Of a stretch of 64,000 nt of DNA, positions 19,844 through 41,153 are shown one piece after another. Source of the DNA: Spironucleus salmonicida (lineage: Eukaryota); the NCBI RefSeq assembly GCF_000497125.1, contig NC_090598.1:744001-808000 (forward strand). Reading direction: 5' to 3'. Position 1 is the stretch's first letter, and the number at the start of each line of letters is the position of its first letter. The translations under genes and the position numbers were made by a program. The notes beneath the pieces are model-generated. The model was not told the DNA's origin. It made no database searches and was given only the letters and a program-made list of their open reading frames with translations.

Positions 19844-20284
19844 TCAGTTTTTTTATCTAACAAAAAAGCTAATAGTGACATAGCATAGGGAAAATAGAAG
19901 AGTGCATGAAATAAAAGTGTACAAGATTGTAAAATTCGACTGTTTAAGCTTCATATTTGGAAAAGTAATTGTATAAAGAATATCAACACAGGCTTAGCTT
20001 GTTAGATTTTAAAAAGATAAATAATTTTACATTAGTTTTGTAGTATTATTTTATTTTTTGCCAATTTAAACATATAATGTTTCATTTTAAAGCTTATTAG
20101 TGTCAATTTCTGCTACATCAAAATAAAAATAAACAGAGTTTAATGCGTTTTAATCTGATGATAATTTATATGTAAAGTTATTCTTATTCTATTTAAATTA
20201 TAACGAGCCATCAATGAAAAATCTTGTAAATGCTTAAATTAAAATTGTATTACCACCCAAATAAAGATCTGTCGAAAACTCCAT
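19844..20284 (-). CDS. Hypothetical protein with C-terminal TM, 146 aa
   Basis: MEFSTDLYLGGNT...FTILYTFISCTLLFSLCYVTISFFVRQKN*. Confidence 0.6.
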
Positions 20285-20346
20285 TTTTAAAAATTAATTA
20301 ATTATAATGATATAATAAATATATTATTATTCTACAAATTTTGTAA

Positions 20347-20682
20347 ATGCGAAATCAATCATTACCAAATCTTCTCCCTTTAGACAAAGAAGTTTATAAC
20401 GAAGATGTTTCGAGACGTATTATTCACAGAAAGTCATTTTTGTGCAACAAAATGATTAATTTTGAGCATTCTTAGGAGAAACGAGTTTGGCGAAATTCAT
20501 TTTCTCTCTTAAAGCAGAATCAGCTAACACCAGAGATGACGTACGATTTTGAAGCAGATTTTAAGGTTCTAGAGTCCTCATAGGATGAAAATTCGTCTGA
20601 GGCAGAAATCATGAAAATCTCTTAGATAAAAAGAAAAAATACAAAGCTTATAAGTGATTTTAGGAAGCGAAATCTGAAATGA
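20347..20682 (+). CDS. Hypothetical protein, 111 aa
   Basis: MRNQSLPNLLPLDKEVYNE...; divergent from 20284 gene; TGA 10 nt from kinase stop. Confidence 0.6.
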
Positions 20683-20692
20683 GCATTCTTTG

Positions 20693-21631
20693 TCACTCGA
20701 CCACCTGTTCTTCTTCGTCATCGGCGGCCTTTTCCTGGTCGGCGGCGGCAATCTCTTTAGTGCAGATTTCCGTCCACTGCGCAAGATAATCTTTGTCCTC
20801 AGCTACGAAGTCGGACTTCAAAATATCGGCAAAAGTTGGTCTGGTAGCGGCATCCAGAGTGAGCATTTCCTTGATTAGTTTGACCGCAGAAAGTGGCATC
20901 TGCCCATTGTCAATTTTGGCTTGAGGGAAGGTTACCTCGCCCTTGCATATAACTTCCTGTAGCTGTTCGTGCGTTGCAGCATCAAAAGGATATCTTCTCA
21001 GTAACATCAGGAATAAGAGAATACCCGTTGACCAAATATCGGCTTTCTGGCCGTCATAATCGCGACGTTTTAAAACCTCCGGAGCAACGTAGTACGGTGA
21101 ACCACAAGAAGTACGTAAAAGCGTTCTCTTTGACTATGACGCAATATCTTGGTCTTCGTTATAAATTGCAGATAAACCAAAGTCAGATATAAATAGCTGA
21201 TTGTGATCTTCAGACATTAAGATGTTTTCGGCCTTGATATCTCTATGGGCAATCGAATTCAGATGGCAGTACTCCATTGCAGAAGCGCCTTAGATGAACA
21301 ACCTACGCACCTGGTGCAAAGGGAGTCGCTGCTGCTGGAGCAACTAGAGCAAATTACCTCCACCAATAAAGTCCATAACGATATAAAGCTTGCGTTTAGA
21401 GGCTAAAATGAAGCGAGAGCGCACGATATTAGGATGCTTAAGCGTTTTCATGACCTTGATTTCGGTTTTGATGTGTTTAAGTTGGGAAGGGGTTAAACGA
21501 TCAATATTCTTAATAACCTTCATAGCAAACATATTGTCCTCCTCATCTGTAACTAAATACACCTCAGCATAAGCACCTTTACCAACAGGCTGCTGAATGG
21601 TATATGGGCCCACCTTTTTCTTTTCAGCCAT
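20693..21631 (-). CDS. Ser/Thr protein kinase, CAMK/SNF1-CIPK-like, 312 aa
   Basis: GKGAYAEV, AMKVI, HRDIKAEN, DFG, TSCGSPYYVAPE, DGQKADIWS, YPFD. Confidence 0.95.
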
Positions 21632-21816
21632 TTTTTAGATTGGAGCGGTAGGATTTTAACGAATAATACATTATTATATAATTTCTAACTACATTCAAAC
21701 TTCCTAAGTTTTGCGTCGAAAAAACACTAATATATAAAAATTATATCCAGAACAATACGAAATTTCCTCCGGAACGGAATTTTTAATATTAAAACCACCA
21801 CATAATAATCGATTTT

Positions 21817-23019
21817 TCATTCACCGAAACGCACCGGCCGGCCTGCAATCGCGCGCTCAATTCGCGCTACGTCGTCCCCAGCGACCGCGCGGCCCAGAGC
21901 GAGCAGCATCCGCTAGAAAATGACGTTATCGCCTTTCCGCTAAACCGCGAAGTGGAACCAGCTCGCACTCTCGTTTTGAACCATTTCCGGTCCAAAATTC
22001 GTTATATCAGTTCCCTTCCTTATTTTTTCCACTCCAAATGGGCAAAATCTCAAAATCTCAAAAATTTTAGAAACCTCGAAATTTTCGCTCCCAGAAAATA
22101 TTTCTACGGCGTTTCGAATCGCCCTTCTACTGATATAACGAAATTCGCGGTAAAGCTGCAATTTGAGCATGTTGGCGTCCTGGGCAGCCGGCGCCGGCGG
22201 CAGTTTTTTGAGCCCAAAACGGCCGTTTTCGAGCACGAAAACCAGCGCTTTAAAAGTCTCGTTTCCGAGCGTTCCGTCCCGTCCCGCGAGCGCGAAAGCG
22301 CGCTCTGCAAGAACGCCGGAAACGCGTTTTCCGAGCCCCGAAATGAGTTCCGTTATATCAGTAAAAAATTTATTTTCTGGAAAAAATTATTTTCCACTCT
22401 AAATTTTGGATTTTCCGCTTTAATTTTTACCTTCCACTTATAAATTTGTAGAATTTTGCGAAATTTCGTCGTTTTTGCTCGAAAAAGGTAAAATTTCGTC
22501 TCGTGGCGCCTGGATTTCCTCGGTTTCTACACTTTCACTTTCACTCGAATTTTGTTATATCAGTTGGGAGACGAATTTCGCTTCATTTTTCGCTCCTTTT
22601 CCATTCCTATTTCCCTTCCTTTCCGCTCCTTTTTAACGCTCAAAAGCGATTTTCGAGAGCTACAAATCGCGCTGGATCCTGTCCTTCAGCTGCCGCTCGT
22701 CGGATTCGAAGTCCAAAATTCGACTAATTTCGTACTTTTGGCTCAAAATTTGGCGCCGATTTTGCATTTTCGCTTCAAGTTTCCGTAGATTTTCGATGTT
22801 TCTGGCGATAAGGTTATGCTTCGATTGTTATTATTATACAATTTTTGTTAATTACGGTTTCGTGGGAGCGAAGTTTTTGTTGATTTCGGGGAGCGCGAGG
22901 AGCGGGGAAGTTGGTAGTTGCGGTGAGGGCGTAGAGACCTTGCCTGCGTGTAAATATGGTTTTAGGTGCCGTTTGGGGGGCTGCAGCTGCGAAGAAATGC
23001 CGGGGGCGTCTAGCAGCAT
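21817..23019 (-). CDS. Hypothetical protein, 400 aa
   Basis: AAAATG at 23019 (MLLDAPGISSQLQPPKR); single frame including track ORF 21940-22236; TGA at 21817. Confidence 0.7.
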
Positions 23020-23152
23020 TTTTGCGAAATGGAGTGGAATTCGTATATAAATTATATAATAATCGTATTAGTGTTATTTTGAGTGTGGAAGGGAAATGAA
23101 AAAATGAAATAGGCTGGTAATGAATCGAATCTAAGTAAAACAAAATAAAAAA

Positions 23153-24238
23153 TCACTGAATTTGGGCAGATATTGAAAGCTCGACAGTTCCGTGCTCTTA
23201 GTTGCTGTCATTTGTGTTAATGTTTACCAAAATGAGCTCTTCGGGTAGCTTGTTTTTGCTTTTTTTGTCAAAAATTAGCGTTTGGATAAAGGTTACACGG
23301 TCTACCCAGCTTAGCGTGCTTGCAACGAACAGACTGTCGGTTCTGGGGTACTGATCTGATATAACTTTACTGAAAAAGTAGGGGAAAAACACAAAATGGT
23401 ATATGACGAATACAATCGTGCCGATGAGAAAGGCAGAAGCGTAACTAGTTAATATATACGGTGTTAGGTATTTTTTATTCTTTAACACTCTTTGTTATAG
23501 TGGTTGCAGTAAAAAATTATTAGAAATTGTGAATCCGTAATTTAAATGCGACTAATAGTGAATAGCACGTGAGTTGATAATAACTGGGTCTTTCTCAGTA
23601 AGCATCGCTAATTCTTAAAATATTATCGTGTGCAGTGCAAGAAGGCTAATAAAGATAATTAAACGATCAGCAGCGGTTAACATTTCCGTTGGCATAAACC
23701 TCAAAATATGGTGCCGGTAAAAGAATATGTAAATAGCAGATCGTACTGCAGCTAAAGGTACGTCAGGATTAACTATATAGTAAAATACCCAGCTCATAAG
23801 ATACCAGAATACAATTTTTACAATGTATTAGTCGGCAAGAAGATGATGATCAAAGAAAAATAGCGACGCCATCACACAGAAAGTAAACCAATAACTGTGT
23901 AAAGTAATTTGGGTCATTGAACCTGAAAAATATCGCAAAGTAAAGAATGCTTCTAAAATAAAAGCAGTAATTCCGATACCAACTACAAGTATTGATATCA
24001 GAATATATTTTGTAGGATAGTTAAACTGATGAAGCCATTTACTATGTTCCTTAAAGATTTTTTAAGTAAGAATCGATGAAAGAGTAAGATTTGAAATAGC
24101 ATCAGAGTAAAATTTATCGAACACATCTAGCTTAGTACCACAAATAAGAAAAACCATACCAAATACTATAATTGATATAGGAAGAGATGCTACAGCAGCA
24201 AAGAACGACTTAATGATTTAGAAAATTAATTTAGGCAT
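23153..24238 (-). CDS. Multi-pass membrane protein, 361 aa
   Basis: Joins track ORFs 23615-23797 and 23198-23488 in one frame; several hydrophobic helices; ends CAG TGA. Confidence 0.75.
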
Positions 24239-25038
24239 TTATCTCTTAAATCTGATAATAAATAATATGAACTAAACTAGTATATTAAAATGGAGTGTAA
24301 GTTTATGACAGTAAAATAGCAATAAATTTATTTTATTCTATATAATATATTATTAAAAATCTGTAAAATTATATATATTATTAATTATGGAATTAATTGT
24401 ATATATTTTATAATAATGATGATACTTTATACTAGTAGTCTCACTATGCTGAATCATCATCTAGTAAATAAAGATCAGCTCAAATTAACATTATAAATGT
24501 TATTCTTTAACTTTAAATCAATTAAACATTAATTAAGATTACTATTATGCTATTTTTTACTGAGTTGACTATTTTATACTGATTGTATTCTGATTTTCGC
24601 CTAATATCTAAATAGAAATATTCATTTAAGTATGATCTCTCATTATCAACGCCATTTAAATACAATATTACTTGTATCAATTTATTTATTACTACATATA
24701 TGTCATTTAACGTTAAATTAGTTTAGATTTCTCAATTTAAATAATAATTATAGATACAAGAAATCCTAGCTTGAACTGCTGTCTCTTAACACTACATTTG
24801 ATACTTTTCCCTAGAAAATCAACTATATCATTCACAATCATAAATTTTCCAAAATATTTATTCCAACTTTAATAAACTTTTTTCTTTACCTGATTTTGAA
24901 ATTGCTTTTGTATTGTGATAAATTTTTTTTATGTTATGACAAAATTGCATAGCTCATTATCTTTTATACATTGATAAATCAATATACACCCAAATTCACA
25001 GCAAAATAATTAATCTATATTAAGCAAATTACAATACT

Positions 25039-25317
25039 TCAGTCGATTGAAAGCATCCGGATTAGTGTTTCCATCAAATCTTCGCAATAATGATGTGTTT
25101 TCTTAGGTACATCATCATGAACAACAAATCGTTTTAGCTCTTAACTTTTGGCGTATTTTCCTGTTGCTTTTCTGGAAAGATCATAATATTTTTGCTTTAC
25201 CTGTGATTCAGATAGTTCCGGGAACAATGTTTGCTGTAAGTCTCTCCAGTTCATGCCATTAGCCTCCACATAGTTCAAAACCTGTTGGCATTCATACGGA
25301 GTCCACCTATGTGTCAT
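25039..25317 (-). CDS. Single-repeat Myb-like protein, 92 aa (left palindrome flank)
   Basis: MTHRWTPYECQQVLNYVEANGMNWRDLQQTLFPELSESQVKQKYYDLSRKATGKY... Confidence 0.88.
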
Positions 25318-27807
25318 TTTTATAAAGATTTATTTTTTAATGTGTATATCATCTTGATAATTGAAATATTATGAATTTTTAATGGTAGATTGTTGAAACA
25401 GTAAAAAATAAGAGTCTGTAAATTATCTTATATAATGAATAATATTATGTAAATAGTTTTGTTTCCGAATCAGAAATCTACACATTATCTCAATATATAA
25501 AATACTAATGTTTCAATAGTTATTTTTCAAAATTGTTATGAATACTCAATATTATAAAACTCATCTAATAACTTATTAAAACATAAATTTTAATATAAAT
25601 TTTAAAAATTACATTTCTTTAATTCTAAAAAAAATACAATGAATGATAGTTAAAGAATGTAGTAAATTGCCATATTAATTTTGATTGTATATTTATTATT
25701 AAGATAAAAATGAAGTTAAATGTATGTAATATTTGTTATATAATTCGTTGAGAAACCATTAAACTTACTTAAAGTATATACTAAACTAGAAGTTTATTTA
25801 TTTTTTACATGATTACATTATAAAAGTAGAATATGATACTTGATGATGAAAATTATTATTTTACTCTAATTGACTTTACCTGTATTTTTCGATTCAGACA
25901 AGGCTTAAACAAAATTGGAGAAAATCGATAGTAATAATATAATATACTCTGAATATTATGTAACCTTATATTAAACGATACAAAGCTAAAAACTAACCTA
26001 TAACTGTTAATTTTTAGCCTACTAGATGCCTCAACTCAGTCTGATCGTCTACATCTTCCCGCGCAAGAAACGCATGCAGCCTTTCCGCACCGTCTCCAAC
26101 CAGGCGTATCACGTATCTCAGAATGCTAGCTTGCCATAGTTATTGAACAACCCAGTGAAACTTCCACGCGGTTCACGCCCACCGCCATGAGCATGCCCAC
26201 CGTCACCGTGGAATCCGTGCAAGCCAAGTTCCCAGAGGAGCATCTGTGTGAGCGGTTTAGCTCTATCCATCCTCCTCAGAGAAGACTACCTCTGATCCAT
26301 AGATTCTATTGTATCCAGATGCAACCGCAACCAGGTTTTTGGGCCCAGTTCCCAAGGCTACCAAGTGGCCTAGAGCCGCCAGTGAAGCATCCTGGATTGA
26401 CCGCTAAAACGGCGATCTGTGGGCGTGGTTCATGGCTGGTGCCTTTACCAGCCCTTTCTGTGAATATAAAGTATGCACTGTATCACGCCCCTTCTGATCA
26501 CTCTAAGGGGTGGGCTGCACGCCCCTACGAGCGAGTCTCTTTACTTCCACGTTGGAACTTCTGTTAGATGGATACTAAACTGCTAGAAGTTGGCCTAGCC
26601 GCGTGCTTGCGCTGAGGAGCCCCAGGTTATGTCTTCGAGGAGCAAGCAGCTTATGCTCCGCCGTGCCCACGAGAATTCGCTATGCCCGCAAGCAAAGAAA
26701 CGACGATCTGTGATTTTCTCCTAGACCCAGCAGCCAGTTCGGATATGCCCGGACCACTTGCTCAATGTATTTCTGCAGTGGGAAGGGGTCGTCATATGAT
26801 AGCAGGCATGCGCACCCGCCGACTGCAGGTCCGCAAGCCCTTGCTAGGTAAAGCAGCGTAGTCGCTACGATAGGTGCCGGCTATGGTTCGTACTGCAAGG
26901 AGCTGATCCCCAGCAACTACTTATACCCAGGCAGCATGGTCCGGGCAGACTCTATCACCCCAGGATGGGCGGGAAAATGGCACCTGAGAGCCTAAATATG
27001 CCTTGGCCTTGCATCAGCACCGGACCTGCCAGTGTGGTTCCGGTCTGGCTGGTTGCTAGAGCCTAAAGTTAAGCCTCGGCTGCGCACGAGTGCTTCGGGC
27101 CAGGACGCAATTCGGACTCGGGTGGCATGGAGATGCCATAGATAGATTGCTAGAAGCACGCCGGACCGGAAAGCATGAATAGCTGACGACGTTCTACTAT
27201 CAATCCAGCAAGGCTCCAGCGTCCACAGTTCCATACCCCTGGTCGAAAGACGTGCTGTCGGCAAATTAGCACAGACCATGCAGGTTGCACCGCTGGTTCT
27301 GGCGAGTGGAAATACGCTCCTGGGTGCGACGATACTCAAAAACTACACGCGAGCTCGCTAGACTAACTTCCAGCGGAATTGGTGCCTTGTAGGACCGGTT
27401 TTGGCATTTATCGCTAGCGGGTTCGGATACAGGTGCGTATCTCTGGGTCGAAACGGGCGCATACAACGCGGAGTGTAGCCAGCAGACAAGATATTATTCC
27501 GCTCCATTTCACTTTCCCATCTATATAATAACATATATAGTGTATTGACAAGTATTCATTCCTTTCTAAATAGTGAACTGCGATATACTTGTATAAATAG
27601 ACGAAAGGCCATACCCAGCTAAAGTATTCTACTTGGCGTAGGGTAGAAAGAATCTATCTCCACTTGTTTATTTGGAATTCTAGCGAGAAGTAGACCTCAA
27701 ACGAAAGATCACGACACTTCCGCCGATTTTTAAATAAAATTCCCAGGCGCAGTATCGGTTAATATCTAGCCGAGTATTGCCCAACTTTGTAAACCTCAAA
27801 ATCAGAA

Positions 27808-29727
27808 ATGACATGCTCTGCCGACACCGACTGCGGGAAAGGGGAGTGCATAGATACCGTGTGTGCCTGCTTCCAAGGGTACAGCGGGGACTAGTGCGCG
27901 AGCTGCGCTAGCGGGTTCTCCCAGACGGCCCAGGGATGCCTGAAGAACTGCACCTAACTGGATTGCGGGAGAGGTTTTGCCTGCACCGGGGGGCTGCTGC
28001 CGGCCCAGGCGGTCTGCACGTGCGAAAACGCAAACTTTGATCCGGCCCAGAGGTGCATGCACTGTCTGGAGGGGTTTTAACCCGACAACGGAATGTGCGT
28101 ATCGGACCAGTGCTTCAACGCTGGAAGGCTGTGCAGCGGGCACGGGATATGTGACTCTGGCTGCGAATGCTTCAGTTTTTACACCGGGGAGACCTGCAAC
28201 GCCTGCACCGAAGACTCTGTTAGAACAGCAGACGGCTTCTGTCTTCGCGCGTGCAGAGAGATGAACGGCAAGCTCCAGTGTCCGCTTTTCGGCTCCAAGT
28301 GCAGCTAAACCGTAGTCCCAGGCAGAAACGTATGTGTCTGTGAGGACAAAAAATCGGACCTAGATCACAACTGCCTCACCTGCTAGGAGGGGTACTCAAA
28401 GACTGGGGAGGGGTGCGTGGTGAGCACCTGCGTTCACAACCACACGGTTTGCTCGGGCAAGGGGACATGCCAGAATGGGAGCTGCGCATGCAACGCAGAT
28501 TCGGGCGGCCTATGGTGCGAGCGGTGCCAGGGTGCCGCAGACATCATGACAAACGACGGCAGATGCCTCCCCGCTGGGTGCGTGGACTTAAACTCTGGCA
28601 TCGAGTGCTTTGGCAACGGGAGCTGCGCCGGGGGCCATGGGGTATGCGCTTGCAACACAGGCTACAGTGGGAAACAGTGCGGAGATTGCGGCCCAGGGTT
28701 TAAACATTACAACGGAGGCTGCGCGGCGGAAGCGTGCTTCTAAAACCGCACGGACTAGGAGCCCTGTTCCAGCAACGGCACCTGTAGCCAATTTGGCGAG
28801 TGCGAGTGCAGTGGGATATCTGGCGGAAGCTTCTGTGACGAGTGCGTCTCGGGATTCTAAAAGGTATCCAACGGTGGCTGCATTTCTGTGGACTGCATCG
28901 TTAGCGCCGCATAGTGCAACGATAAAGGGTTCTGCATTCACATTAATGAAGATTTTAGATGCCTCTGCCAGAATGGTTACAGCGGGAATACTAACTGCGT
29001 CGACTGCGAAGAAGGCTATCAGCTCATTACCGGTGAATGTATCTCCATCAGCTGCATCGGAAGGGCCTCGCCGCTCCCGTGCTCTGGGAATGGAACCTGC
29101 TAGGTGTTAGACTTTGTCAACGACATTGAAGGATGCGCCTGCTAGCCTGGATTCATTGGCAGATTTTGTGACGACTGCGACACCGAGAAAGGATTCTCCT
29201 GGACCAACAATCACACCTGCGCTAATAAGGCGTGCATTGGCCGAGATGGCTACGAATGTGCTGGTAATGGCGAGTGTGTCCACCTCTACGAGTAAGTATT
29301 TGAATGCCGCTGCTAGGCTGGGGCGAACGGGAAGTTTTGCCATGACTGCAACGAGGGATTCTTCAAGCTGAGAGAGGGGAAATGCGTCTTCGAGTCCTGC
29401 ATTAGCGAGGCCTAGGAGTGTGCCGGAAACGGGCACTGCAGACAGCTGGGGCTCAGCCACAGGTGCATTTGCGAGGGCTAGTTTGATAGCGAGACTAATT
29501 GCAAGAGCTGCCTGAGTGGATATTCTCTGGTGGGCGGGCGCTGCTAAGAGGGGAACGGTAACAAGCTGAGTGGTGGTGCGATTGCCGGAATTGTCATAGG
29601 TGTGCTGGCTCTGCTGGCATTGATCTTCCTGATCGTATTCGTTGCTATGAGGAGGAAGCCTACTGGACCTTCTAAGGCCAAGAGCAGTGTTACCAAGGAC
29701 ACCGTCGGTGGCCAGCGATTCATCTGA
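27808..29727 (+). CDS. Cysteine-rich EGF-like membrane protein (CRMP/VSP-like), 639 aa
   Basis: MTCSADTDCGKGECIDTVCACFQGYSGDQC...; EGF-like repeats; TM KLSGGAIAGIVIGVLALLALIFLIVFVAMRRK; stop ATC TGA. Confidence 0.93.
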
Positions 29728-30311
29728 AGTGACGCTTTATATTATATAGCATAGATTATTAATATGAGGATAGCAGGAGCTTCCTTGCACCTGTTGCCGG
29801 CTGTGGACAGGGCCCTTCATTGGCAGCCCCAGCACAAGAAACTCATGACGCCTTTTGTGTCATCCCTGCCGGAGTGGCCCAGAATACGCTCAGGTGGTTC
29901 CCTAACCGGTGTCTAGCCCCAGCTTGGACCTACGGCATCTATTCCTGCATCAAGGGTCCCCTCGCAGTGGCAAGAATGGGCCCTACAGAGCCCTCGGTTT
30001 CAGTTTCCATGTAGCCCTGGGAGCGCCCACAATGCGACGGCGTTGGCTAGATTTAGTTTCGAAGCATCTAGACAGATGCGCTCGTCATCCCATTTGTTTA
30101 CCCTACGAAGTTAGGGTTGCTGCGCGTTAGCGGCAAGGGATCCAGATGGGAATGTTGGGCAGGCACAACGGCGGCGGGCAGGAGCTATGGTCTGATTAGG
30201 ACTGAACTGTTTATTATTGAAGGCGCCACAGAGGGCTACCCGCACATTTATGCGCTCAGCTGGCGCCTGCTCTCATTCGAGCCTGGAAAACCATATACAA
30301 TAGTGCAAAGA

Positions 30312-30434
30312 TCACTTGCCAATGGCCTTCAAGAACTCCTTGGTGAATTCAACCGCCTTCTTCTGCGCGTCCTCGCAGCTCACCTTGCTGGTCGCCTCGA
30401 CGTAGTACTTCACCTTCGGCTCAGTGCCAGAGGG
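30312..30434 (-). pseudogene. 3'-terminal fragment of phosphohexomutase carried by left arm
   Basis: Reverse complement of 32427-32549 (PSGTEPKVKYY...AIGK*). Confidence 0.9.
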
Positions 30435-30770
30435 TATAAATATATCATTATTCCAATATAAATATATAATTGTTTACTGTGAAAGATAATAATAATAATA
30501 ATATTGTAATGAAAAATTCATATAATTACTTGCGATTATATATTTTATTTATTTACAAATAATATTAATGATGTTATCATAATGTTATAAATGCAAAAAT
30601 ATATAAATTATTTTATAATATTTATTGTATATCTTCATTTTTAAAATTTGATTAAAATTAACTACAATTGTAAAAATAATCTGAAATTCATAACTAATTC
30701 TAATAAATAAACTTTCAATATATAATAATAATGTGTTGATAACTATTGCTTAGTACCACTCCATAAATCA

Positions 30771-32549
30771 ATGGATCCTAAAACCTAAACTTTAATAGAT
30801 AATTGGTTTGCAATAGATCGCGATGAAAAGTCTCGTAAAATGCTTGAAAAAATGATATAGGAGAAGAACTTCGAAAAGATCGAGAGAATTCTTTCTCCCT
30901 CCAATCGCTTAGAGTTTGGCACTGCTGGTCTTCGCGGAGAAGTTGCCCCTGGCTATTGCTGTATGAACACCGTAGTAATTATGCAAACAGCATAAGGTAT
31001 ACTTAAATACGTTTAAGAGAATTTTAAAAATGATCTTAACAGAGGTATTTGTATTTGCTATGATGCAAGACACTATTCAGATGTTTTTGGCGAGATTACA
31101 GCTGGTGTTTTTATAGCTGCAGGAGTTCCCGTACATTTTTTCAAGCAGCTTTCTCCTACACCTTATGCTGCATATTTCAGTGAAATCTTAAACTGCGTCG
31201 CTGGAGTTATGGTTACAGCTTCTCATAATCCATCTAATGATAATGGATATAAGGTTTATGGTATGAATAGAGGTGTATAGATAGTACCTCCTCACGATTC
31301 AGGTATTCAGTCTGCTATATTAGCTTCTACTGACATTAAGGAATCAACCTATAATTATAAATAATATTTAACTGCTGAATTTGCAGAGAAGAAACTTTAT
31401 AATGAACTTACTGAAAAATCAGCATTAACATAAAAATATTATGATGCTATAAAGAATCTTTGTTTCCATGCGGATTCTAATAAGACTCTTGCAGTCTAGC
31501 TTTAATATTCCGCTATGTATGGTGTAGGATATGTACCATTTTTACGTGCTCTTGAATCTTTTAATTTTGATCCTAAGGCCGTTCTTCATTTCTCTGATTC
31601 TGCCTTCCCTGACCCTGATTTTGGTGGTGAAACTCGTCCTAATCCGGAAGAACGTCATAATATGCTGAACCTAGCTGCAAAAGCAGATCCTAAAACTTAA
31701 ATACTCTTAGTCAATGACCCTGATGCAGATCGTTTTGCAATGGCTGAAAAATAGGACGATGGTGAATACTATGTTTTCCACGGTAATGAAATAGGTGCAA
31801 TCTTAGCTGAATGGATGTTAGAAAATACTTCATAAATTCCCAATAGAGCTATTTGCTGTTCTACCGTCTCAAGTTAAATTCTTAAAACAATGGCTGAATA
31901 TTATAAAGTTGATTTTGAAGATACGTTAACTGGTTTCAAATGGCTCGCTACTTAGAACTTAGAATGGAAAGGACAAAATAAAAACTGCGTTTTTGCCTTT
32001 GAAGAAGCTATTGGTTATTCTTGTGGTGGGGAGCATGGTCTTTTTGTCGGTGATAAGGATGGCGTAGCTACAGCATGTGTCGCTGCTGAAATGGCAAATT
32101 GTCTTTATAAGAAAGGTCTTACTATTAAAAAATATATGCTTAATATGTACGAAAAGTACGGTTTTTATGCCTGGAACAACTCGGGACTGACGGTGGGCTC
32201 AATGGCTGAAGTAGGTGGTCTTTTCGAGGCGTTGATCAAGAACGGCGATGGTAAATTTTCTAAAAATGGCAGAGACTACATGCACCAGTTTGGTAAGTTT
32301 GAAGCCTTGAGAGTAAGAGATATGAGACAGCCCGGGTACGATAGCGAGTGCGGTGTTCCCAAATTGCCAGTAGGGGGGAGCGAAATGCTTAGTTTCTACT
32401 GCGGCGATGTCAGCTGCACCTTTAGGCCCTCTGGCACTGAGCCGAAGGTGAAGTACTACGTCGAGGCGACCAGCAAGGTGAGCTGCGAGGACGCGCAGAA
32501 GAAGGCGGTTGAATTCACCAAGGAGTTCTTGAAGGCCATTGGCAAGTGA
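30771..32549 (+). CDS. PGM2: Phosphoglucomutase/phosphomannomutase (PGM2-type), 592 aa
   Basis: FGTAGLRG, VTASHNP (catalytic Ser), DPDADR (metal loop), LTGFKW, FEEAIG, DKDG, RPSGTEPKVKYY. Confidence 0.93.
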
Positions 32550-35500
32550 TCTTTGCACTATTGTATATGGTTTTCCAGGCTCGAATGAGAGCAGGCGCCA
32601 GCTGAGCGCATAAATGTGCGGGTAGCCCTCTGTGGCGCCTTCAATAATAAACAGTTCAGTCCTAATCAGACCATAGCTCCTGCCCGCCGCCGTTGTGCCT
32701 GCCCAACATTCCCATCTGGATCCCTTGCCGCTAACGCGCAGCAACCCTAACTTCGTAGGGTAAACAAATGGGATGACGAGCGCATCTGTCTAGATGCTTC
32801 GAAACTAAATCTAGCCAACGCCGTCGCATTGTGGGCGCTCCCAGGGCTACATGGAAACTGAAACCGAGGGCTCTGTAGGGCCCATTCTTGCCACTGCGAG
32901 GGGACCCTTGATGCAGGAATAGATGCCGTAGGTCCAAGCTGGGGCTAGACACCGGTTAGGGAACCACCTGAGCGTATTCTGGGCCACTCCGGCAGGGATG
33001 ACACAAAAGGCGTCATGAGTTTCTTGTGCTGGGGCTGCCAATGAAGGGCCCTGTCCACAGCCGGCAACAGGTGCAAGGAAGCTCCTGCTATCCTCATATT
33101 AATAATCTATGCTATATAATATAAAGCGTCACTTCAGATGAATCGCTGGCCACCGACGGTGTCCTTGGTAACACTGCTCTTGGCCTTAGAAGGTCCAGTA
33201 GGCTTCCTCCTCATAGCAACGAATACGATCAGGAAGATCAATGCCAGCAGAGCCAGCACACCTATGACAATTCCGGCAATCGCACCACCACTCAGCTTGT
33301 TACCGTTCCCCTCTTAGCAGCGCCCGCCCACCAGAGAATATCCACTCAGGCAGCTCTTGCAATTAGTCTCGCTATCAAACTAGCCCTCGCAAATGCACCT
33401 GTGGCTGAGCCCCAGCTGTCTGCAGTGCCCGTTTCCGGCACACTCCTAGGCCTCGCTAATGCAGGACTCGAAGACGCATTTCCCCTCTCTCAGCTTGAAG
33501 AATCCCTCGTTGCAGTCATGGCAAAACTTCCCGTTCGCCCCAGCCTAGCAGCGGCATTCAAATACTTACTCGTAGATGTGGACACACTCGCCATTACCAG
33601 CACATTCGTAGCCATCTCGGCCAATGCACGCCTTATTAGCGCAGGTGTGATTGTTGGTCCAGGAGAATCCTTTCTCGGTGTCGCAGTCGTCACAAAATCT
33701 GCCAATGAATCCAGGCTAGCAGGCGCATCCTTCAATGTCGTTGACAAAGTCTAACACCTAGCAGGTTCCATTCCCAGAGCACGGGAGCGGCGAGGCCCTT
33801 CCGATGCAGCTGATGGAGATACATTCACCGGTAATGAGCTGATAGCCTTCTTCGCAGTCGACGCAGTTAGTATTCCCGCTGTAACCATTCTGGCAGAGGC
33901 ATCTAAAATCTTCATTAATGTGAATGCAGAACCCTTTATCGTTGCACTATGCGGCGCTAACGATGCAGTCCACAGAAATGCAGCCACCGTTGGATACCTT
34001 TTAGAATCCCGAGACGCACTCGTCACAGAAGCTTCCGCCAGATATCCCACTGCACTCGCACTCGCCAAATTGGCTACAGGTGCCGTTGCTGGAACAGGGC
34101 TCCTAGTCCGTGCGGTTTTAGAAGCACGCTTCCGCCGCGCAGCCTCCGTTGTAATGTTTAAACCCTGGGCCGCAATCTCCGCACTGTTTCCCACTGTAGC
34201 CTGTGTTGCAAGCGCATACCCCATGGCCCCCGGCGCAGCTCCCGTTGCCAAAGCACTCGATGCCAGAGTTTAAGTCCACGCACCCAGCGGGGAGGCATCT
34301 GCCGTCGTTTGTCATGATGTCTGCGGCACCCTGGCACCGCTCGCACCATAGGCCGCCCGAATCTGCGTTGCATGCGCAGCTCCCATTCTGGCATGTCCCC
34401 TTGCCCGAGCAAACCGTGTGGTTGTGAACGCAGGTGCTCACCACGCACCCCTCCCCAGTCTTTGAGTACCCCTCCTAGCAGGTGAGGCAGTTGTGATCTA
34501 GGTCCGATTTTTTGTCCTCACAGACACATACGTTTCTGCCTGGGACTACGGTTTAGCTGCACTTGGAGCCGAAAAGCGGACACTGGAGCTTGCCGTTCAT
34601 CTCTCTGCACGCGCGAAGACAGAAGCCGTCTGCTGTTCTAACAGAGTCTTCGGTGCAGGCGTTGCAGGTCTCCCCGGTGTAAAAACTGAAGCATTCGCAG
34701 CCAGAGTCACATATCCCGTGCCCGCTGCACAGCCTTCCAGCGTTGAAGCACTGGTCCGATACGCACATTCCGTTGTCGGGTTAAAACCCCTCCAGACAGT
34801 GCATGCACCTCTGGGCCGGATCAAAGTTTGCGTTTTCGCACGTGCAGACCGCCTGGGCCGGCAGCAGCCCCCCGGTGCAGGCAAAACCTCTCCCGCAATC
34901 CAGTTAGGTGCAGTTCTTCAGGCATCCCTGGGCCGTCTGGGAGAACCCGCTAGCGCAGCTCGCGCACTAGTCCCCGCTGTACCCTTGGAAGCAGGCACAC
35001 ACGGTATCTATGCACTCCCCTTTCCCGCAGTCGGTGTCGGCAGAGCATGTCATTTCTGATTTTGAGGTTTACAAAGTTGGGCAATACTCGGCTAGATATT
35101 AACCGATACTGCGCCTGGGAATTTTATTTAAAAATCGGCGGAAGTGTCGTGATCTTTCGTTTGAGGTCTACTTCTCGCTAGAATTCCAAATAAACAAGTG
35201 GAGATAGATTCTTTCTACCCTACGCCAAGTAGAATACTTTAGCTGGGTATGGCCTTTCGTCTATTTATACAAGTATATCGCAGTTCACTATTTAGAAAGG
35301 AATGAATACTTGTCAATACACTATATATGTTATTATATAGATGGGAAAGTGAAATGGAGCGGAATAATATCTTGTCTGCTGGCTACACTCCGCGTTGTAT
35401 GCGCCCGTTTCGACCCAGAGATACGCACCTGTATCCGAACCCGCTAGCGATAAATGCCAAAACCGGTCCTACAAGGCACCAATTCCGCTGGAAGTTAGTC

Positions 35501-36819
35501 TAGCGAGCTCGCGTGTAGTTTTTGAGTATCGTCGCACCCAGGAGCGTATTTCCACTCGCCAGAACCAGCGGTGCAACCTGCATGGTCTGTGCTAATTTGC
35601 CGACAGCACGTCTTTCGACCAGGGGTATGGAACTGTGGACGCTGGAGCCTTGCTGGATTGATAGTAGAACGTCGTCAGCTATTCATGCTTTCCGGTCCGG
35701 CGTGCTTCTAGCAATCTATCTATGGCATCTCCATGCCACCCGAGTCCGAATTGCGTCCTGGCCCGAAGCACTCGTGCGCAGCCGAGGCTTAACTTTAGGC
35801 TCTAGCAACCAGCCAGACCGGAACCACACTGGCAGGTCCGGTGCTGATGCAAGGCCAAGGCATATTTAGGCTCTCAGGTGCCATTTTCCCGCCCATCCTG
35901 GGGTGATAGAGTCTGCCCGGACCATGCTGCCTGGGTATAAGTAGTTGCTGGGGATCAGCTCCTTGCAGTACGAACCATAGCCGGCACCTATCGTAGCGAC
36001 TACGCTGCTTTACCTAGCAAGGGCTTGCGGACCTGCAGTCGGCGGGTGCGCATGCCTGCTATCATATGACGACCCCTTCCCACTGCAGAAATACATTGAG
36101 CAAGTGGTCCGGGCATATCCGAACTGGCTGCTGGGTCTAGGAGAAAATCACAGATCGTCGTTTCTTTGCTTGCGGGCATAGCGAATTCTCGTGGGCACGG
36201 CGGAGCATAAGCTGCTTGCTCCTCGAAGACATAACCTGGGGCTCCTCAGCGCAAGCACGCGGCTAGGCCAACTTCTAGCAGTTTAGTATCCATCTAACAG
36301 AAGTTCCAACGTGGAAGTAAAGAGACTCGCTCGTAGGGGCGTGCAGCCCACCCCTTAGAGTGATCAGAAGGGGCGTGATACAGTGCATACTTTATATTCA
36401 CAGAAAGGGCTGGTAAAGGCACCAGCCATGAACCACGCCCACAGATCGCCGTTTTAGCGGTCAATCCAGGATGCTTCACTGGCGGCTCTAGGCCACTTGG
36501 TAGCCTTGGGAACTGGGCCCAAAAACCTGGTTGCGGTTGCATCTGGATACAATAGAATCTATGGATCAGAGGTAGTCTTCTCTGAGGAGGATGGATAGAG
36601 CTAAACCGCTCACACAGATGCTCCTCTGGGAACTTGGCTTGCACGGATTCCACGGTGACGGTGGGCATGCTCATGGCGGTGGGCGTGAACCGCGTGGAAG
36701 TTTCACTGGGTTGTTCAATAACTATGGCAAGCTAGCATTCTGAGATACGTGATACGCCTGGTTGGAGACGGTGCGGAAAGGCTGCATGCGTTTCTTGCGC
36801 GGGAAGATGTAGACGATCA
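32427..36819 (-). repeat. Right arm (4393 bp) of large inverted repeat
   Basis: Mirror of 26042-30434; spacer 30435-32426 (1992 bp). Confidence 0.97.
33134..35053 (-). CDS. Cysteine-rich EGF-like membrane protein, inverted copy, 639 aa
   Basis: Reverse complement of 27808-29727. Confidence 0.93.
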
Positions 36820-37604
36820 AATTTAGTCTAGATTAATAAGTAAAATTGGTAGTTTGAAAGTATTAGCTTAGTTTGAGTTCATCACTTGTATAACCTAAAG
36901 CTATTTTCTAAACTAGGATGATCTTATTAAGTATAAATAAAAATCAGGAACGACGTCGGTCTTAGAAATTAGTTTATTCATTATATTGAAACAATATTGT
37001 CTCTATTTGTATAACATGTAATTGGGATATTGGTCAAATGTACAAGTAGGATTATTGATGATAAAAATGAGCATCAGTTATCAATCATTCGTATATATGA
37101 ATAGTTTCTTACATAAATAATAATTAATGTATATATTTATTTCCAATTAAAATATAACAATATTTTTGCATATAATTGATAACAATTTACTTACCAAGTA
37201 AATTGTACTAAAATACATAACAATATACAAGAATTGATAATAAGTATAATATACTATCTATATAAATAAGGCATCGTTTTCTTAAGTTTAAATGTAATGT
37301 GAAATTAATATGCAGTACTTTATTTTTATAAAAAATATACTAGCTATCCAGTATATATGGAATATTGTATATTTATAAGATTTTTCAAAATTCTATCATT
37401 AATCATAAAATCTGTATTTAATTAGAAAGTAATTGTAGATTTCTAAGCGTAGAACAAAGCACATTGTAGCTTTATTTATGTTATCTCATGAATATAAAAT
37501 CTAAATATAATCAATTTCTACAGCTAACGCAATCTAAACCTAAGTTCTTTAATTAGGATATTGAAGATAATGTCGAATTATTTAAAAATATAATTTTTAT
37601 AAAA

Positions 37605-37883
37605 ATGACACACAGATGGACATAAGATGAATGCCGACAAGTACAGGAATATGTGCAGAGACATGGTATGTAATGGGAAGATTTATAAACAACTTATTTT
37701 CCATAACTATCATAGTCTTAAGTTAAATAAAAATACTATGACCTCTCACGTAAGGCAACTGGTAAGTATGCTAGCAGTTAAGATTTAAAACGTTTCATAG
37801 TATGTGAAGATATGCCAAAAAAGCTTCATATTCGTTCAGAAAATTTAATGAGTACATTAATTCGGTTGCTAACAGTTGACTGA
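37605..37883 (+). CDS. Single-repeat Myb-like protein, 92 aa (right palindrome flank)
   Basis: MTHRWTQDECRQVQEYVQRHGMQWEDLQTTYFPQLSQSQVKQKYYDLSRKATGKY...; same length as and colinear with 25039-25317. Confidence 0.88.
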
Positions 37884-38146
37884 TTCCTTTCCTTTTCCAC
37901 TCCCCATGATGATTAGTTACAGCCGCCCCAGACTCAATACTGAGGACGCAAAGGTTTGACTGACGCTTTCAAGTATTTATATTTCTTTAGCCTGCGGGTA
38001 CTCGTTACTTATTATACGATCTCTGCCGTGCTTATCGGGCACCGTAGGCGGGCTCGCCATAGGGCTGCTGCGCTACACCAGAGCGGGCTGGCCCCTCCGC
38101 TGCTCCAGAGGGCGCGAAGGCCTGCCCACAGTGATCCACGTCATAC

Positions 38147-38341
38147 TCACTAGTCCCCAGGGTCGTCTGGTGCCAGCGAGCTCTCGCAGATACCGTCCAG
38201 CAGGCAGAACTCCTTGACCTCGTCCAGGCTGAACTCGCGCACGCACAGGTTGTCCAGGCTCATCAGCCGGCTGGCGAAGGCGCACCGGATGGGCTCCTTG
38301 GGCCGGGGCTTGAAGCTGCTCTGCCTCAGGTGCAGCGGCAT
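38147..38341 (-). CDS. Small Cys-containing protein family 'MPLHLR', 64 aa
   Basis: MPLHLRQSSFKPRPKEPIRCAFASRLMSLDNLCVREF...; ends TAG TGA; diverged paralogue at 61205 supports coding. Confidence 0.75.
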
Positions 38342-38644
38342 TTTCCTTGGCGATGTGCTGGCGAAGGGGTATCAATATAAGGCGAGCCGCTCAAGAATGG
38401 AAAGGGCATTTGCGCGAGTGCAGATGAGTTAGCAAGGAAACCAGTTTCTCCGTTTTCCATACCTCATATTAGGCCATTGTGACGCCAGTTCCCAAACAAA
38501 GCGGAAAGTACAAAGTATACAGTGCGTATTCCCGCGTAATACGGCCATCTAGAAAGGGGCTGGGCAATGCTGCGCAGGGTCCGCCCTCTGCCGCTGGCCG
38601 TCGGTCCTGCTGCCTCCGGCCCGCTGAGCCACCCTGCCGCGGAG

Positions 38645-38938
38645 TCACACCAGCACCCGCACCGCCTTGAAGCCCTCGGGCCCCAGGCCGCAGCCCCGCA
38701 GGTCGAGCACCTCCAGGCCCTCCACCAGGCCGGTGTCGGCGGACCGCAGTCCCCTGCAGTCGGCCAGCTTCAGGACCCGGAGGACCAGCGGCGCCGTGGC
38801 GCTCAGCCGCACGAGCCGCGAGCCCGTGAAGTCCGCACCGTCGAACGGCACCCTGACGCTCGCGAGGTCGAACTGCAGCACGCTGGCGCCCCGGAAGTCG
38901 AGGATGGCCAGACCGTTGAAGTTGCGGTAGAACTTCAT
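38645..38938 (-). CDS. Small leucine-rich-repeat-like protein, 97 aa
   Basis: MKFYRNFNGLAILDFRG...LRVLKLADCRGL...LEVLDLRGCGL; LxxLxL units; GC3-rich. Confidence 0.6.
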   Translation of the reverse strand: MKFYRNFNGLAILDFRGASVLQFDLASVRVPFDGADFTGSRLVRLSATAPLVLRVLKLADCRGLRSADTGLVEGLEVLDLRGCGLGPEGFKAVRVLV

Positions 38939-38983
38939 TCCGGGGGCATGCCTTATAATACAATATCCGGCCCCTCTACGCAA

Positions 38984-39511
38984 ATGGCGAACGACGCGCA
39001 GAAGAAGATCGTCCAGCAGAACGCGGCCACCGTGGGGAAGCTGCGCAGCGCGATCGCGGCCGTCTTCGCCTTCCACCTGGCCCTCTCCTACGGCCTGCGG
39101 GCCCGCTCTGTGCGGCTCCCGCGCGTCTGCTGCTCCTGCCTGGCCATGGGGCCCGTCTGCGCGATATACCGCGCCCTGGCCCGCTTCGCGCAGCCCAGCA
39201 TGGACGGCACGCAGACGCTGCGCAACAACTCGCCCATCACCCAGGGCCACCTCTTCTCGGCCCTCTTCGACGTGGTCTACGTGCTGCTGTTCTGCCTCGT
39301 GCTGCTCAGCTTCGGCGACGGGATGCGCTGGAGCTTCCTCCTCCTGCCGCTGGGCGCCGTGGCGGTCCTCTGGGTCAAGGTCGCCCGGCCCTGGCTGTTC
39401 CAGTCCCGCTTCGACGACGAGGGCGAGCGGCAGAAGCAGCTGGAGATGGACCAGGCATACGCGAAGGCCAGGGAGCGCGCCGAGCGCGGCAGGAGGAAGT
39501 ACAAGTTCTGA
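38984..39511 (+). CDS. TMEM208: TMEM208/SND2 (DUF788) ER-targeting protein, 175 aa
   Basis: MANDAQKKIVQQNAATVGKL..., LARFAQP, LFDVVYV...LLLP, basic C-terminal tail. Confidence 0.8.
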   Translation: MANDAQKKIVQQNAATVGKLRSAIAAVFAFHLALSYGLRARSVRLPRVCCSCLAMGPVCAIYRALARFAQPSMDGTQTLRNNSPITQGHLFSALFDVVYVLLFCLVLLSFGDGMRWSFLLLPLGAVAVLWVKVARPWLFQSRFDDEGERQKQLEMDQAYAKARERAERGRRKYKF

Positions 39512-41153
39512 GCTCACTCTTTTTCGTTTGTAGTGTATTCACAGATCCAGACTTTCTGCAAAAGCATTCACAAGCTAAAATCAGCAATCCAGCCACAATT
39601 CCAGATACCCCCGTTATACTATACACTAGCGTATTACTATATATTCTTGTCTGATCGAAAAACTAAATCACGGGAATTATGACTTGATCATATTATACAA
39701 TAGAATAAAGCCTCTTGCTCGTAATTAGAGATGAAACTTTCTGTGCAGTGGCTCGGTCCACAGAATCTTCAAATGCGATAGAATAGTTTTGCACTGAAAA
39801 AATATCTCGTCGACTGAGCACTAGGAATGGTTCAGGCAAGATATCTGTTATTAAACCATTTTTAACCGTTTTTTCAAAAAATGATACTTAGATTAGATAT
39901 CTGGATTATACTTGGAGTGTACATCCTATAATATAAATCGGCGCATTGCCTATTTAAATTGATCCCTCGACGGCATTGCTTTCGAACTAAACAGTCAGCT
40001 AAGTGTATTCATAACACGACTGATATCTTCTTGGATTTAACATTATGAAATCAAGCGCGCCGTTGTCTCTATATACGAGGACTGTGACTGAAACAAGAAG
40101 AGTCTCCTCCTTTCCTAGAAAGGATAGTAATTCAATGCAAGTGGGGTCTTCAACCTATTTGCACTCTACTGATAATGTGGTAGTTTCTTAGCGGAATTCC
40201 GACTGGTTATTTTAGTACGTCCATGTGACGCCTTCACCTGCAATTTCAGAATTTGTAATCCCAACAATAACTTCCGTTAAATTTGATGAAAACACACATT
40301 TGTTAGTAGGCGTAAAGTATAGGATTATAAGTTCTCCGTTAATTTGGTAAGAGGAGTCTGAGTAGCAATTAACAAGATTGGTATCAAAAATGTTATCTAT
40401 TGAAGTTGTGAATGTAAGATAATCTGTATCAGGATTGTTTAGTTAGAAATAAAGATTGAATTGAAGGTCCACTATGGCGTTGTAAATAATATTATTTACC
40501 ATCTAGTCGCACTCACTTACGTTGGGAAAATTATTACAGTTGAACACCACTTCGATAGGTGAAGATTCAGTGAGGGAGGAAAACTGCACGCCAACCTAAA
40601 ATATAAGGGACTAATCGAATACTACCAACTCAGCTAACACAGTTTCATTTAACTACTCCGGTGCGAGCCCAGAGGGTTTCTTGCCAAACTGTGTAATCGA
40701 GTAATTACACCCATTTTGCTTGGCTGATATCGTAAAGACGTTGTCTGCTAGAGACGCCTTAACGTCAACTAGGCAATCATTCGCGTTGAAGCTTAGCACC
40801 GAGAAGTAGGCCAGGGTCTGCTTCACCTCGGCGTCCATGTCCAGGAAGGTGATCTTGAAGTTCGACTGGGTGGTGAGAAGCCCGGCCTCTTTTTCCGCAT
40901 CGGTCTCAAAGGGAATATTGATCTGAATGTTCTGCAGATGGCGATACTCAAAATTCTCGGAAAAGGCTTCCTGGGCGTTGACCAGTTCCACTGATGCTCT
41001 GGTGAGTCTGCCGTCGAGCTTCTGACAGATTTCGAAGGCGCTCGATGTGGACTCCGGGAGGTACGTGGCCCGCAATATGCCCATCCCGGTAATCGGGTTG
41101 TACACGAAGGTGGCGTTGGGTAAATAGCTGCTGACGGCGGGCAGACTTAGCAT
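39375..41153 (-). CDS. Type-I surface protein family, copy 2 (592 aa if read to first TGA; overlaps TMEM208 3' end)
   Basis: MLSLPAVSSYLPNATFVYNPIT...QSNFKITFLDMDAEVKQTLAYF; no in-frame TGA until 39375; TM GVSGIVAGLLILAC. Confidence 0.8.

Follow-up and report, generated by a model that had tools for sequence, protein, structure and literature searches.

We describe a palindrome in a 64,000-nucleotide stretch of DNA (hereafter the window) from the salmon parasite Spironucleus salmonicida. It probably arose long ago by inverted duplication and has since been kept uniform, over a long period, by gene conversion biased towards GC. Four things seen directly underlie this reading: the geometry of the repeat, the mosaic structure of a third copy's membrane-protein gene (CRMP-A), steps in GC content at the ends of shared tracts inside intact genes, and junctions supported by contigs. 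The outcome looks like a membrane-protein gene present twice in identical form, serving maintenance or dosage, and not a switch.

Results

The left arm (26042-30434; 4,393 bp, 53.9% GC) and the right arm (32427-36819; 4,393 bp) are reverse complements of one another at all but 1 of 4,393 sites, as an earlier, sequence-only reading had reported, and identity stops sharply on either side. The single mismatch lies at 29284, where the left arm carries C on the forward strand and the right arm and the third copy carry A; this makes a Leu/Ile difference at codon 493 of the gene in the arms, CRMP-B. The C occurs in no row among the contigs listed from four public runs, the X2 contig having A; either an error of assembly or a rare variant lost from the contigs may account for it. 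The spacer (30435-32426; 1,992 bp, 34% GC) contains the upstream region of a phosphoglucomutase gene, PGM (14.6% GC), and its first 552 codons, matching the earlier description of a spacer that holds most of PGM; 308 bp of it are common to the third copy. PGM itself (30771-32549, forward strand) is intact, and its 592-aa product contains each of the four PGM_PMM Pfam domains. Its final 123 bp lie inside the right arm, and the left arm holds a promoterless copy of them (30312-30434, reverse strand). When a flip of the spacer was simulated PGM came out identical, as had been predicted. A decayed PGM remnant was detected neither in the left part of the spacer (z 0.12) nor upstream of the third copy (z 0.53).

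Genes were called with NCBI code 6, under which they are full-length; the standard genetic code gave fragments only. Each arm carries one CRMP-B gene, a CRMP-2/tenascin-like gene of 639 aa with 88 Cys (left, 27808-29727, forward strand; right, 33134-35053, reverse strand), and Ile versus Leu at codon 493 is the sole difference between them. CRMP-B has 11 CxxC and 11 CxC motifs, where the CRMP-2 class defined by Xu et al. 2014 (PMC3916229) calls for at least 3 CXXC or CXC, together with the C-terminal transmembrane helix of that class, near residues 595-613 (Kyte-Doolittle 19-mer peak of 3.39 at residue 595). The CRMP-1 signature [KR][KR]X[KR][KR] (KKxKK) has no match in CRMP-A, CRMP-B or the paralogue P0014, as expected of CRMP-2 proteins, and cluster-mates of CRMP-B bear the names CRMP2, cysteine-rich protein and tenascin. 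No hydrophobic signal peptide was found in CRMP-B; recognisable signal peptides are lacking in CRMPs generally, and the CRMPs described as tagged in earlier work were three CRMP-1 proteins, one of which showed a VSP-like location at the surface (PMC3916229). The two genes converge, as previously noted, although the term "head-to-head" was misapplied, the arrangement being 3' to 3', or "tail to tail" in the Giardia literature, with 3,406 bp from stop to stop. Each copy is accompanied by 1,766 bp of identical DNA upstream and 707 bp downstream, all inside its own arm. The CRMP promoter, which lies inside the arm, has a GC content of 36%.

The GC-rich outer part of the arm (26042-27490) was considered as the site of a second gene, a proposal we rejected: its 443-aa ORF has no Pfam match and is missing from the protein collection, and GC is flat across codon positions there (0.52-0.58). 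Of eight arm ORFs sought in that collection, two are present as entries without a shown name and six are absent. Along the arm there is also a weak skew from C-rich to G-rich, which we likewise set aside because the coding strand of CRMP confounds it.

Outside the arms lies an older mirror. A Myb-domain gene of 92 aa stands 724 bp beyond the left arm (25039-25317, reverse strand) and another, also of 92 aa, 785 bp beyond the right arm (37605-37883, forward strand). They share 63 of 92 amino acids and differ at 94 of 279 nucleotides, with saturated silent sites (pS 0.86) and a dN of 0.24, in line with the earlier description of diverged mirror genes of equal length. That reading had also proposed asking whether the two are each other's closest paralogues; they are mutual closest relatives, the partner accounting for both matches in one similarity search and scoring 137 bits in a second, in which none of the 38 remaining matches exceeded 57 bits. 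The shoulders between gene and arm (left, 25318-26041, 724 bp, 19.8% GC; right, 36820-37604, 785 bp, 21.7% GC) are diverged and AT-rich. Aligned to each other they give z 6.4, compared with |z| < 1.7 in all 12 AT-rich controls, and about 240 bp upstream of the Myb ATGs still align above shuffled sequence. Homology is undetectable from 240 to 720 bp upstream of the Myb ATG, so the continuity of the old mirror is inferred there from position. No homology was detected past the Myb stops (z -2.35), and none of the six sides of the window's three other repeats has a diverged shoulder at z 2.

The strongest evidence comes from a third copy, which the earlier reading overlooked. It lies 20 kb to the left (11743-13519, forward strand) as a direct repeat of 32097-33873. 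It comprises a 3' PGM fragment (11743-12194), followed by the intergenic DNA and by the 3' third of CRMP-A (12780-14699, reverse strand). Over the 1,692 bp of its core (11764-13455) it departs from the right side at 9 substituted sites and by a single indel, the nine splitting 5:4 without polarity. CRMP-A is a colinear mosaic paralogue of CRMP-B, also 639 aa, with all 88 Cys positions in common. Over residues 1-393 the two proteins are 48% identical (188/393) and silent sites are saturated (pS 0.89), whereas over residues 416-639 they are 98% identical (219/224), with 7 nucleotide differences. The outgroup paralogue P0014 matches CRMP-A at only 156 and CRMP-B at only 158 of these 224 residues, and constraint alone therefore does not account for the C-terminal identity of A and B; over residues 1-393 the three proteins are about equidistant (196, 189 and 188 of 393). 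No homology was detected between the DNA upstream of CRMP-A and that upstream of CRMP-B (z 0.17).

Base composition changes where intact genes enter the shared tracts. In PGM, GC3 rises from 108/450 (0.24) in the single-copy part to 55/102 (0.54) in the part common to the third copy only, and to 35/40 (0.88) in the arm. Change points found without reference to repeat edges fall at 32145 (range 32133-32172), where shared sequence starts at about 32119, and at 32439, where the arm edge is at 32427. Likewise, GC3 in CRMP-A is 142/412 (0.34) outside the shared tract versus 150/227 (0.66) inside, and its change point, again found without repeat edges, is at 13511 (13454-13520), with the tract end at 13455-13519. 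In CRMP-B, GC3 is 289/412 in the two-copy part and 151/227 in the three-copy part, and the copy-number "dose" seen in PGM is missing. Among codons 1-393, those encoding the same amino acid in both genes pair a third-position A/T of CRMP-A with a G/C of CRMP-B in 85 cases, the opposite pairing being seen in 16 (p 1.5e-12). The C-terminal contrast, which is unpolarised, is 32:13 (p 0.007), and polarisation with P0014 at the protein level gives 18:10 and 10:15 in the N-terminal part, neither being significant. Within the arms, non-coding DNA matches coding DNA both in its degree of identity and in its GC content (53-55%), and non-coding GC steps lie at 26016, 36815 and 30434. GC richness and duplication do not always coincide in the window: a duplicate at 39.5-40.7 kb is 99.5% identical, yet its GC3 is just 0.27-0.42, and the 3' third of a gene at 9953-11731 has a GC3 of 0.81 with no partner in the window for its GC-rich end and none among 152 short-protein candidates.

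Support for the assembly came from contigs of the four public runs. All three DNA runs derive from one sample, possibly the source of the window; runs X5-X8 are presumed to be RNA, and X5 belongs to a second study. Contigs break at every repeat edge, and those of the left arm are also bridged. The left inner junction is bridged by an X2 contig (29052-32148), and the left outer and right inner junctions by X5 contigs (records 25 and 26). Contigs of X1, X2 and X4 all show the adjacency at the right outer junction, but with 30 letters on the arm side, one short of the 31-letter criterion applied. In both X1 and X4 an arm-only contig (33780-36819) stops where the arm does, and an X2 contig of 12,646 bp fits 13426-26071, in support of the third copy. 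None of the contigs listed spans the whole locus. Relative to single-copy flanks, contig depth, which is no copy number, is 1.6-1.9 for arm-only DNA and 1.9-2.75 for three-copy DNA. The protein collection lists each of the two CRMP-B alleles under an entry of its own, and the overlapping fragments P0006 and P0007 carry distant accession numbers.

Discussion

The history that we favour would begin with an ancient inverted duplication running from within the 3' end of PGM to the Myb stop codon, about 5.4 kb per side. The inner 4.39 kb would have been held identical by ectopic conversion, recurring from arm to arm, while the outer 1 kb would have escaped conversion, its intergenic DNA decaying and its Myb genes surviving under purifying selection. 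A third old copy, consisting of the PGM tail and CRMP-A, would exchange a 1.7-kb tract with palindrome sequence; because exchange would be limited to this tract, CRMP-A would keep its own N-terminal two thirds and share only the membrane-proximal third. If mismatch repair during these conversions favours G/C, silent and non-coding sites would be rewritten up to the tract ends in an otherwise AT-rich genome. We infer, from the features described above, the order of these events, a GC bias in repair as the cause, and conversion that is still ongoing.

The sequence-only reading had likewise proposed an old inversion with homogenised arms, and this part stands; its alternative of a recent re-copying is less favoured, since the GC steps lie inside intact genes, and for that reason we prefer long-term conversion. 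A single recent re-copying of an already GC-rich segment, by duplication or a long overwrite and without continuing exchange, would explain arms that differ at just 1 of 4,393 sites, agrees with the interpretation of identical Giardia pairs as recent duplication plus transposition by Adam et al. (PMC2996952), and could accommodate the GC-rich stretches that have no partner in the window. We nevertheless consider it unlikely: pre-existing GC steps would have to fall within tens of bases of later breakpoints in three places, the in-frame CRMP-A mosaic would need a separate event, and the old mirror Myb pair would be left unexplained without an earlier inversion. Expression or codon-usage selection, or regional mutation bias, as the source of the GC islands, with identity kept by purifying selection for dosage, is highly improbable. 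Regional mutational bias was indeed proposed for such GC shifts in 2007 (PMC1805757), and the 36% GC that the CRMP promoter keeps inside the arm shows selection at work there, but non-coding arm DNA equals coding DNA in identity and GC, the steps fall mid-gene, and highly expressed S. salmonicida genes have a GC3s near 0.4 (PMC1805757). We give equally little credence to an assembly or fold-back artefact. The lack of a listed contig across the locus, the 30 arm-side letters at the right outer junction, the single sample behind the DNA runs and the one arm difference unseen in contigs all speak for it; against it, the other three junctions are bridged, two of them by second-study contigs, the adjacency at the right outer junction recurs in three runs, the protein collection holds both alleles and fragments far apart in accession, and an artefact would not produce diverged mirror Myb genes.

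The locus had also been put forward as a candidate system for switching surface antigens, a claim that finds no support here. The CRMP family has been proposed as analogues of VSPs in an organism that lacks Dicer and Argonaute and whose CRMP regulation is unknown (PMC3916229), whether CRMPs take part in antigenic variation is treated as an open question in the literature (PMC6397501), and one conversion tract does end inside the ectodomain. An invertible switch alters a promoter or coding sequence, but here each arm encloses the promoter and 3' region of its own copy, and because the upstream and downstream DNA is identical within each arm, a flip of the spacer swaps nothing between the CRMP-B copies and changes neither protein nor promoter. 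A crossover within the tract shared with the third copy would join N-terminal halves to C-terminal halves that differ at just 5 of 224 residues, and the part homogenised between CRMP-A and CRMP-B is membrane-proximal. A role for the palindrome in switching or diversifying a surface antigen, by either route, is very unlikely, and the locus does not look like a new antigen-switching system. A broader proposal is something of a long shot: a three-copy recombination network, active in growing cells, in which the spacer would flip often enough to be counted and conversion tracts of varying length would extend beyond the common C-terminal part into the variable ectodomain, generating natural CRMP-A/B mosaics and giving an RNAi-less diplomonad one means of varying its cysteine-rich coat, with the "cryptic" identical inverted vsp pairs of Giardia being the same kind of old, self-correcting palindrome.

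GC-rich duplicates and identical inverted vsp pairs are already known; the locus is of value as a within-gene test of the GC-island puzzle of 2007. Sharp GC shifts in S. salmonicida were then described as unexplained (PMC1805757), and in 2022 they were tied, without a mechanism, to duplicated DNA, which makes up 19.2% of the genome and has 44.7% GC versus 30.7% for the rest (PMC9509377). PGM and CRMP-A serve as internal controls, each shifting its codon composition on entering a shared tract. If conversion is indeed at work, near-identity cannot date duplications in diplomonads. The GC-rich duplicated regions treated in PMC9509377, PMC1805757 and PMC2874811 represent the same phenomenon in the same species, and gene conversion is suggested among these papers for the surface-protein repertoire; in the text consulted, they mention neither palindromes nor tracts that end within a gene, nor do they invoke GC-biased repair as the cause. 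Among the matches listed, our search of literature outside subscription papers found no report of diplomonad palindromes with GC-biased conversion.

Like the primate X and Y palindromes (Jackson et al. 2021, PMC8981503), the S. salmonicida locus has a unique spacer between inverted arms of more than 99% identity, a GC content that is higher in the arms than in the flanks (53.9% versus 19.8% and 21.7%) and a structure older than arm divergence implies, as indicated indirectly by the Myb pair and the GC3-rewritten PGM tail. The arm boundaries of primate palindromes shift over time, to which the present locus may be likened. The arms are 4.4 kb here and up to 1 Mb in primates, where conversion was demonstrated with an outgroup; here it is the probable explanation. 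The gap in GC between arm and flank is about 33 points (54% versus 20-22%), compared with about 4 in primates (PMC8981503), so that GC-biased ectopic conversion, if it is the cause, would be far stronger here.

Another close parallel is with the vsp pairs of Giardia intestinalis (Adam et al. 2010, PMC2996952), likewise identical, tail-to-tail pairs of diplomonad cysteine-rich membrane genes. The stop-to-stop distance of 3,406 bp falls within the 2,190-3,847 bp over all identical Giardia pairs, and identity continues for 707 bp past the stop before ending abruptly, as it does for 139-729 bp in Giardia (PMC2996952). Pairs in G. muris also have coding or truncated genes between them (PMC7641422). 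Giardia pairs are VSP genes, whereas the gene here is CRMP-2/tenascin-like; upstream identity is longer here than there, at 1,766 bp, and, unlike in Giardia pairs, a complete metabolic gene sits in the spacer and reaches into an arm. Adam et al. proposed recent duplication, and the term "gene conversion" occurs 0 times in their text (PMC2996952), whereas the diverged outer mirror, the third, mosaic copy and the GC steps point here to an old, converted structure. If this is correct, it would offer an alternative to recent duplication for the identical inverted vsp pairs of Giardia.

Results

The palindrome proposed by the sequence-only reading is real, and there is more to it than that reading gave. 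The left arm, 26042-30434, and the reverse complement of the right arm, 32427-36819, are 4,393 bp each and differ solely at 29284. Translation under NCBI code 6, which gives full genes where the standard code gives only fragments, confirmed in each arm the reported 639-aa Cys-rich membrane gene, CRMP-B (left, 27808-29727, plus strand; right, 33134-35053, minus strand), the pair converging 3' to 3' with 3,406 bp from stop to stop. Named cluster-mates of CRMP-B are S. salmonicida CRMP2, cysteine-rich protein and tenascin entries, and the proteins of CRMP-B and of the related gene CRMP-A agree with CRMP-2 on three of three criteria. The spacer (30435-32426) does hold most of PGM (30771-32549), which encodes 592 aa with four Pfam PGM domains, starts in the spacer and ends 123 bp into the right arm. 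The arm segment 26042-27490 and its mirror, 35371-36819 (1.45 kb, 55% GC), show flat codon periodicity and no convincing gene; biased conversion may have erased a gene here.

Contigs of four public sequencing runs were aligned to 24400-38400; X1, X2 and X4 come from a single sample, possibly the source of the window's DNA, and X5 from a second study, its RNA nature being only our guess. Contig ends fall where a repeat graph has to break, as in X1 (30405-32148, 32119-32456, 32427-33809, 33780-36819 and 36790-37930), and none of the contigs listed from the four runs covers the whole locus. The left inner junction is spanned by X2 record 10 (a numbered contig); X5 records 25 and 26 span the outer junction on the left and the inner one on the right. 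Three runs contain the right outer junction, in contigs that extend 30 letters into the arm, one below our bridging criterion. Relative to single-copy flanks, contig depth is 1.93, 1.84 and 1.59 in arm-only DNA; where a third copy shares the sequence it is 2.75 and 1.93, depth not being equal to copy number. The C allele at 29284 is absent from every contig row listed from the four runs. In the protein collection, entries P0005-P0007 are CRMP-B cut into pieces by a frameshift that is absent from these runs and probably reflects homopolymer errors of an older assembly.

Outside the arms lies a diverged mirror pair of Myb genes, as originally described, at 25039-25317 (minus strand, 724 bp from the arm) and 37605-37883 (plus strand, 785 bp), with 63/92 residues identical and silent sites saturated (pS 0.86, dN 0.24). 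Within clustered libraries the two are each other's closest relatives, as the sequence-only reading required: a HMMER scan of 50%-identity representatives gave 137 bits for the partner and at most 57 for the other 38 matches, both candidates (2/2) from a word-based search were the two window proteins, and the nearest same-length Mybs, from another S. salmonicida contig, are 35-36% identical. Alignment of the AT-rich shoulders between arm and Myb beat all 200 shuffles (z 6.4), with |z| < 1.7 in 12/12 AT-rich controls. Since this homology is found only in the roughly 240 bp preceding the Myb ATG, it may be a conserved promoter. Matching orientation and distance suggest that the old mirror is continuous. 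No alignment was found past the Myb stops. Two 93-aa Mybs on another contig, P0019 and P0055, differ at one residue, have locus tags 7 apart and are a candidate for another converted pair.

Self-comparison of the window revealed a third copy, overlooked in the sequence-only reading: 11743-13519 is a direct repeat of 32097-33873, with a 1,692-bp core (11764-13455) bearing 9 substitutions and 1 indel. Within it lie the 3'-terminal 450 bp of PGM, intergenic DNA and the 3'-terminal third of CRMP-A (12780-14699, minus strand, 639 aa), and the length of X2 record 9 (12,646 bp) fits the interval from the edge of this copy to that of the left arm, 13426-26071. CRMP-A and CRMP-B are colinear and have 88/88 Cys in common, yet CRMP-A is a mosaic: residues 1-393 are identical at 188/393 positions with silent sites saturated, and residues 416-639 at 219/224 with 7 nt differences. 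A fourth 639-aa paralogue outside the window, P0014 (88 Cys; tenascin-like by name; 3 matches among 140 candidates), is N-terminally about as far from one as from the other (196/393 and 189/393 identical) and matches them at only 156-158/224 positions C-terminally, so the C-terminal identity of CRMP-A and CRMP-B is higher than constraint would produce. Gene conversion typically shows itself by such an excess. A gene at 9953-11731 (592 aa, no Pfam match) stops 12 bp before the third copy, and its GC3 climbs from 0.44 through 0.61 to 0.81 toward it; the GC-rich end is possibly a former conversion tract.

GC content is 53.9% in the arm versus 19.8% and 21.7% in the shoulders, and non-coding arm DNA is itself 53-55% GC except for the CRMP promoter (36%). 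GC3 steps up within genes, in PGM from 108/450 to 55/102 in the part common to the third copy and 35/40 inside the arm, and in CRMP-A from 142/412 to 150/227. Fitted without reference to the repeat edges, change points lie at 32145 and 32439 for PGM and at 13511 for CRMP-A, with non-coding steps at 26016, 36815 and 30434. Where codons 1-393 specify the same residue, CRMP-A has A/T and CRMP-B has G/C at the third base 85 times, and the opposite holds 16 times; 30/33 substitutions between near-identical window copies are A/T versus G/C (9/9, 14/16 and 7/8).

The window holds other repeats. A 3.26-kb direct repeat (37887-41150 and 49234-52497, 99.5% identical) begins 4 bp past the right Myb stop and carries genes for TMEM208/SND2 and for a membrane protein of 592 aa. 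Though duplicated, the repeat is AT-rich in its middle, and a loose end at 37893, unmatched within the window, suggests that another copy lies elsewhere. Four related membrane proteins (about 7500-9011, 39375-41153, 42645-44276 and 50722-52497) are about 35-50% identical in aligned blocks, the two scanned having no Pfam match. A 2.18-kb direct repeat (45548-47727 and 53453-55635) encodes two identical condensin II CAP-H2 proteins (504 aa, GC3 0.85). Between the arms of a 413-bp inverted repeat (55918-56330 and 61746-62158, 99.3% identical), 59.5-61.7 kb is GC-rich with no partner in the window. An A/T-only tandem repeat of about 490 bp occupies 5733-6226.

Discussion

The most likely history, in our view, is an old inverted duplication that reached from the tail of PGM as far as the Myb stop codon. 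Its inner part would since have been homogenised by ectopic conversion biased to GC, in which a third old copy would take part over 1.7 kb. The geometry, the mosaic and the GC steps are observed directly; we infer the order of these events, the repair bias and that conversion is ongoing. A single recent copying event would also leave identical arms, but most silent sites are rewritten, which would need many rounds of conversion and so argues against one copying. Several observations count against GC-biased conversion. GC3 in CRMP-B shows no step where two-copy DNA gives way to three-copy DNA (289/412 against 151/227); protein-level polarisation was not significant (18:10 and 10:15); the duplicate at 39.5-40.7 kb is 99.5% identical to its partner yet rich in AT (GC3 0.27-0.42); and no duplicate of the gene at 9953-11731 was found in the window or among 152 short-protein candidates, despite GC3 of 0.81 in its last third.

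The suggestion that inversion of the spacer by crossover between the arms would spare PGM was borne out, PGM being unchanged in a simulated flip, so such a crossover would be tolerated. The proposal of an antigen-switching system is not supported: the 1,766 bp before and the 707 bp after each CRMP-B copy belong to that copy's own arm, and therefore a flip would switch nothing. The palindrome is unlikely to be an antigen switch.

The locus provides within-gene controls for the GC-island question left open in 2007, when the account of sharp GC shifts in S. salmonicida offered no explanation (PMC1805757). High-GC3s genes of this species seem, by an earlier account (PMC2874811), to be of recent origin or to have been lost from S. 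barkhanus, and the 2022 genome account gives 19.2% of the genome as duplicated, with GC of 44.7% versus 30.7%, and proposes gene conversion for the surface-protein repertoire (PMC9509377). We found no report in the open literature linking diplomonad palindromes to GC-biased conversion. In primate X palindromes, arm-to-arm conversion is described as GC-biased, with an excess of about 4 points GC and shifting arm boundaries (PMC8981503). G. muris has seven identical inverted vsp pairs with coding sequence in between (PMC7641422). In Giardia intestinalis, vsp genes form 14 identical inverted pairs, spaced 2,190-3,847 bp apart, whose flank identity stops abruptly and which were interpreted as recent duplications and termed cryptic (PMC2996952). 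The palindrome described here suggests that the inverted pairs of Giardia could be read in another way.
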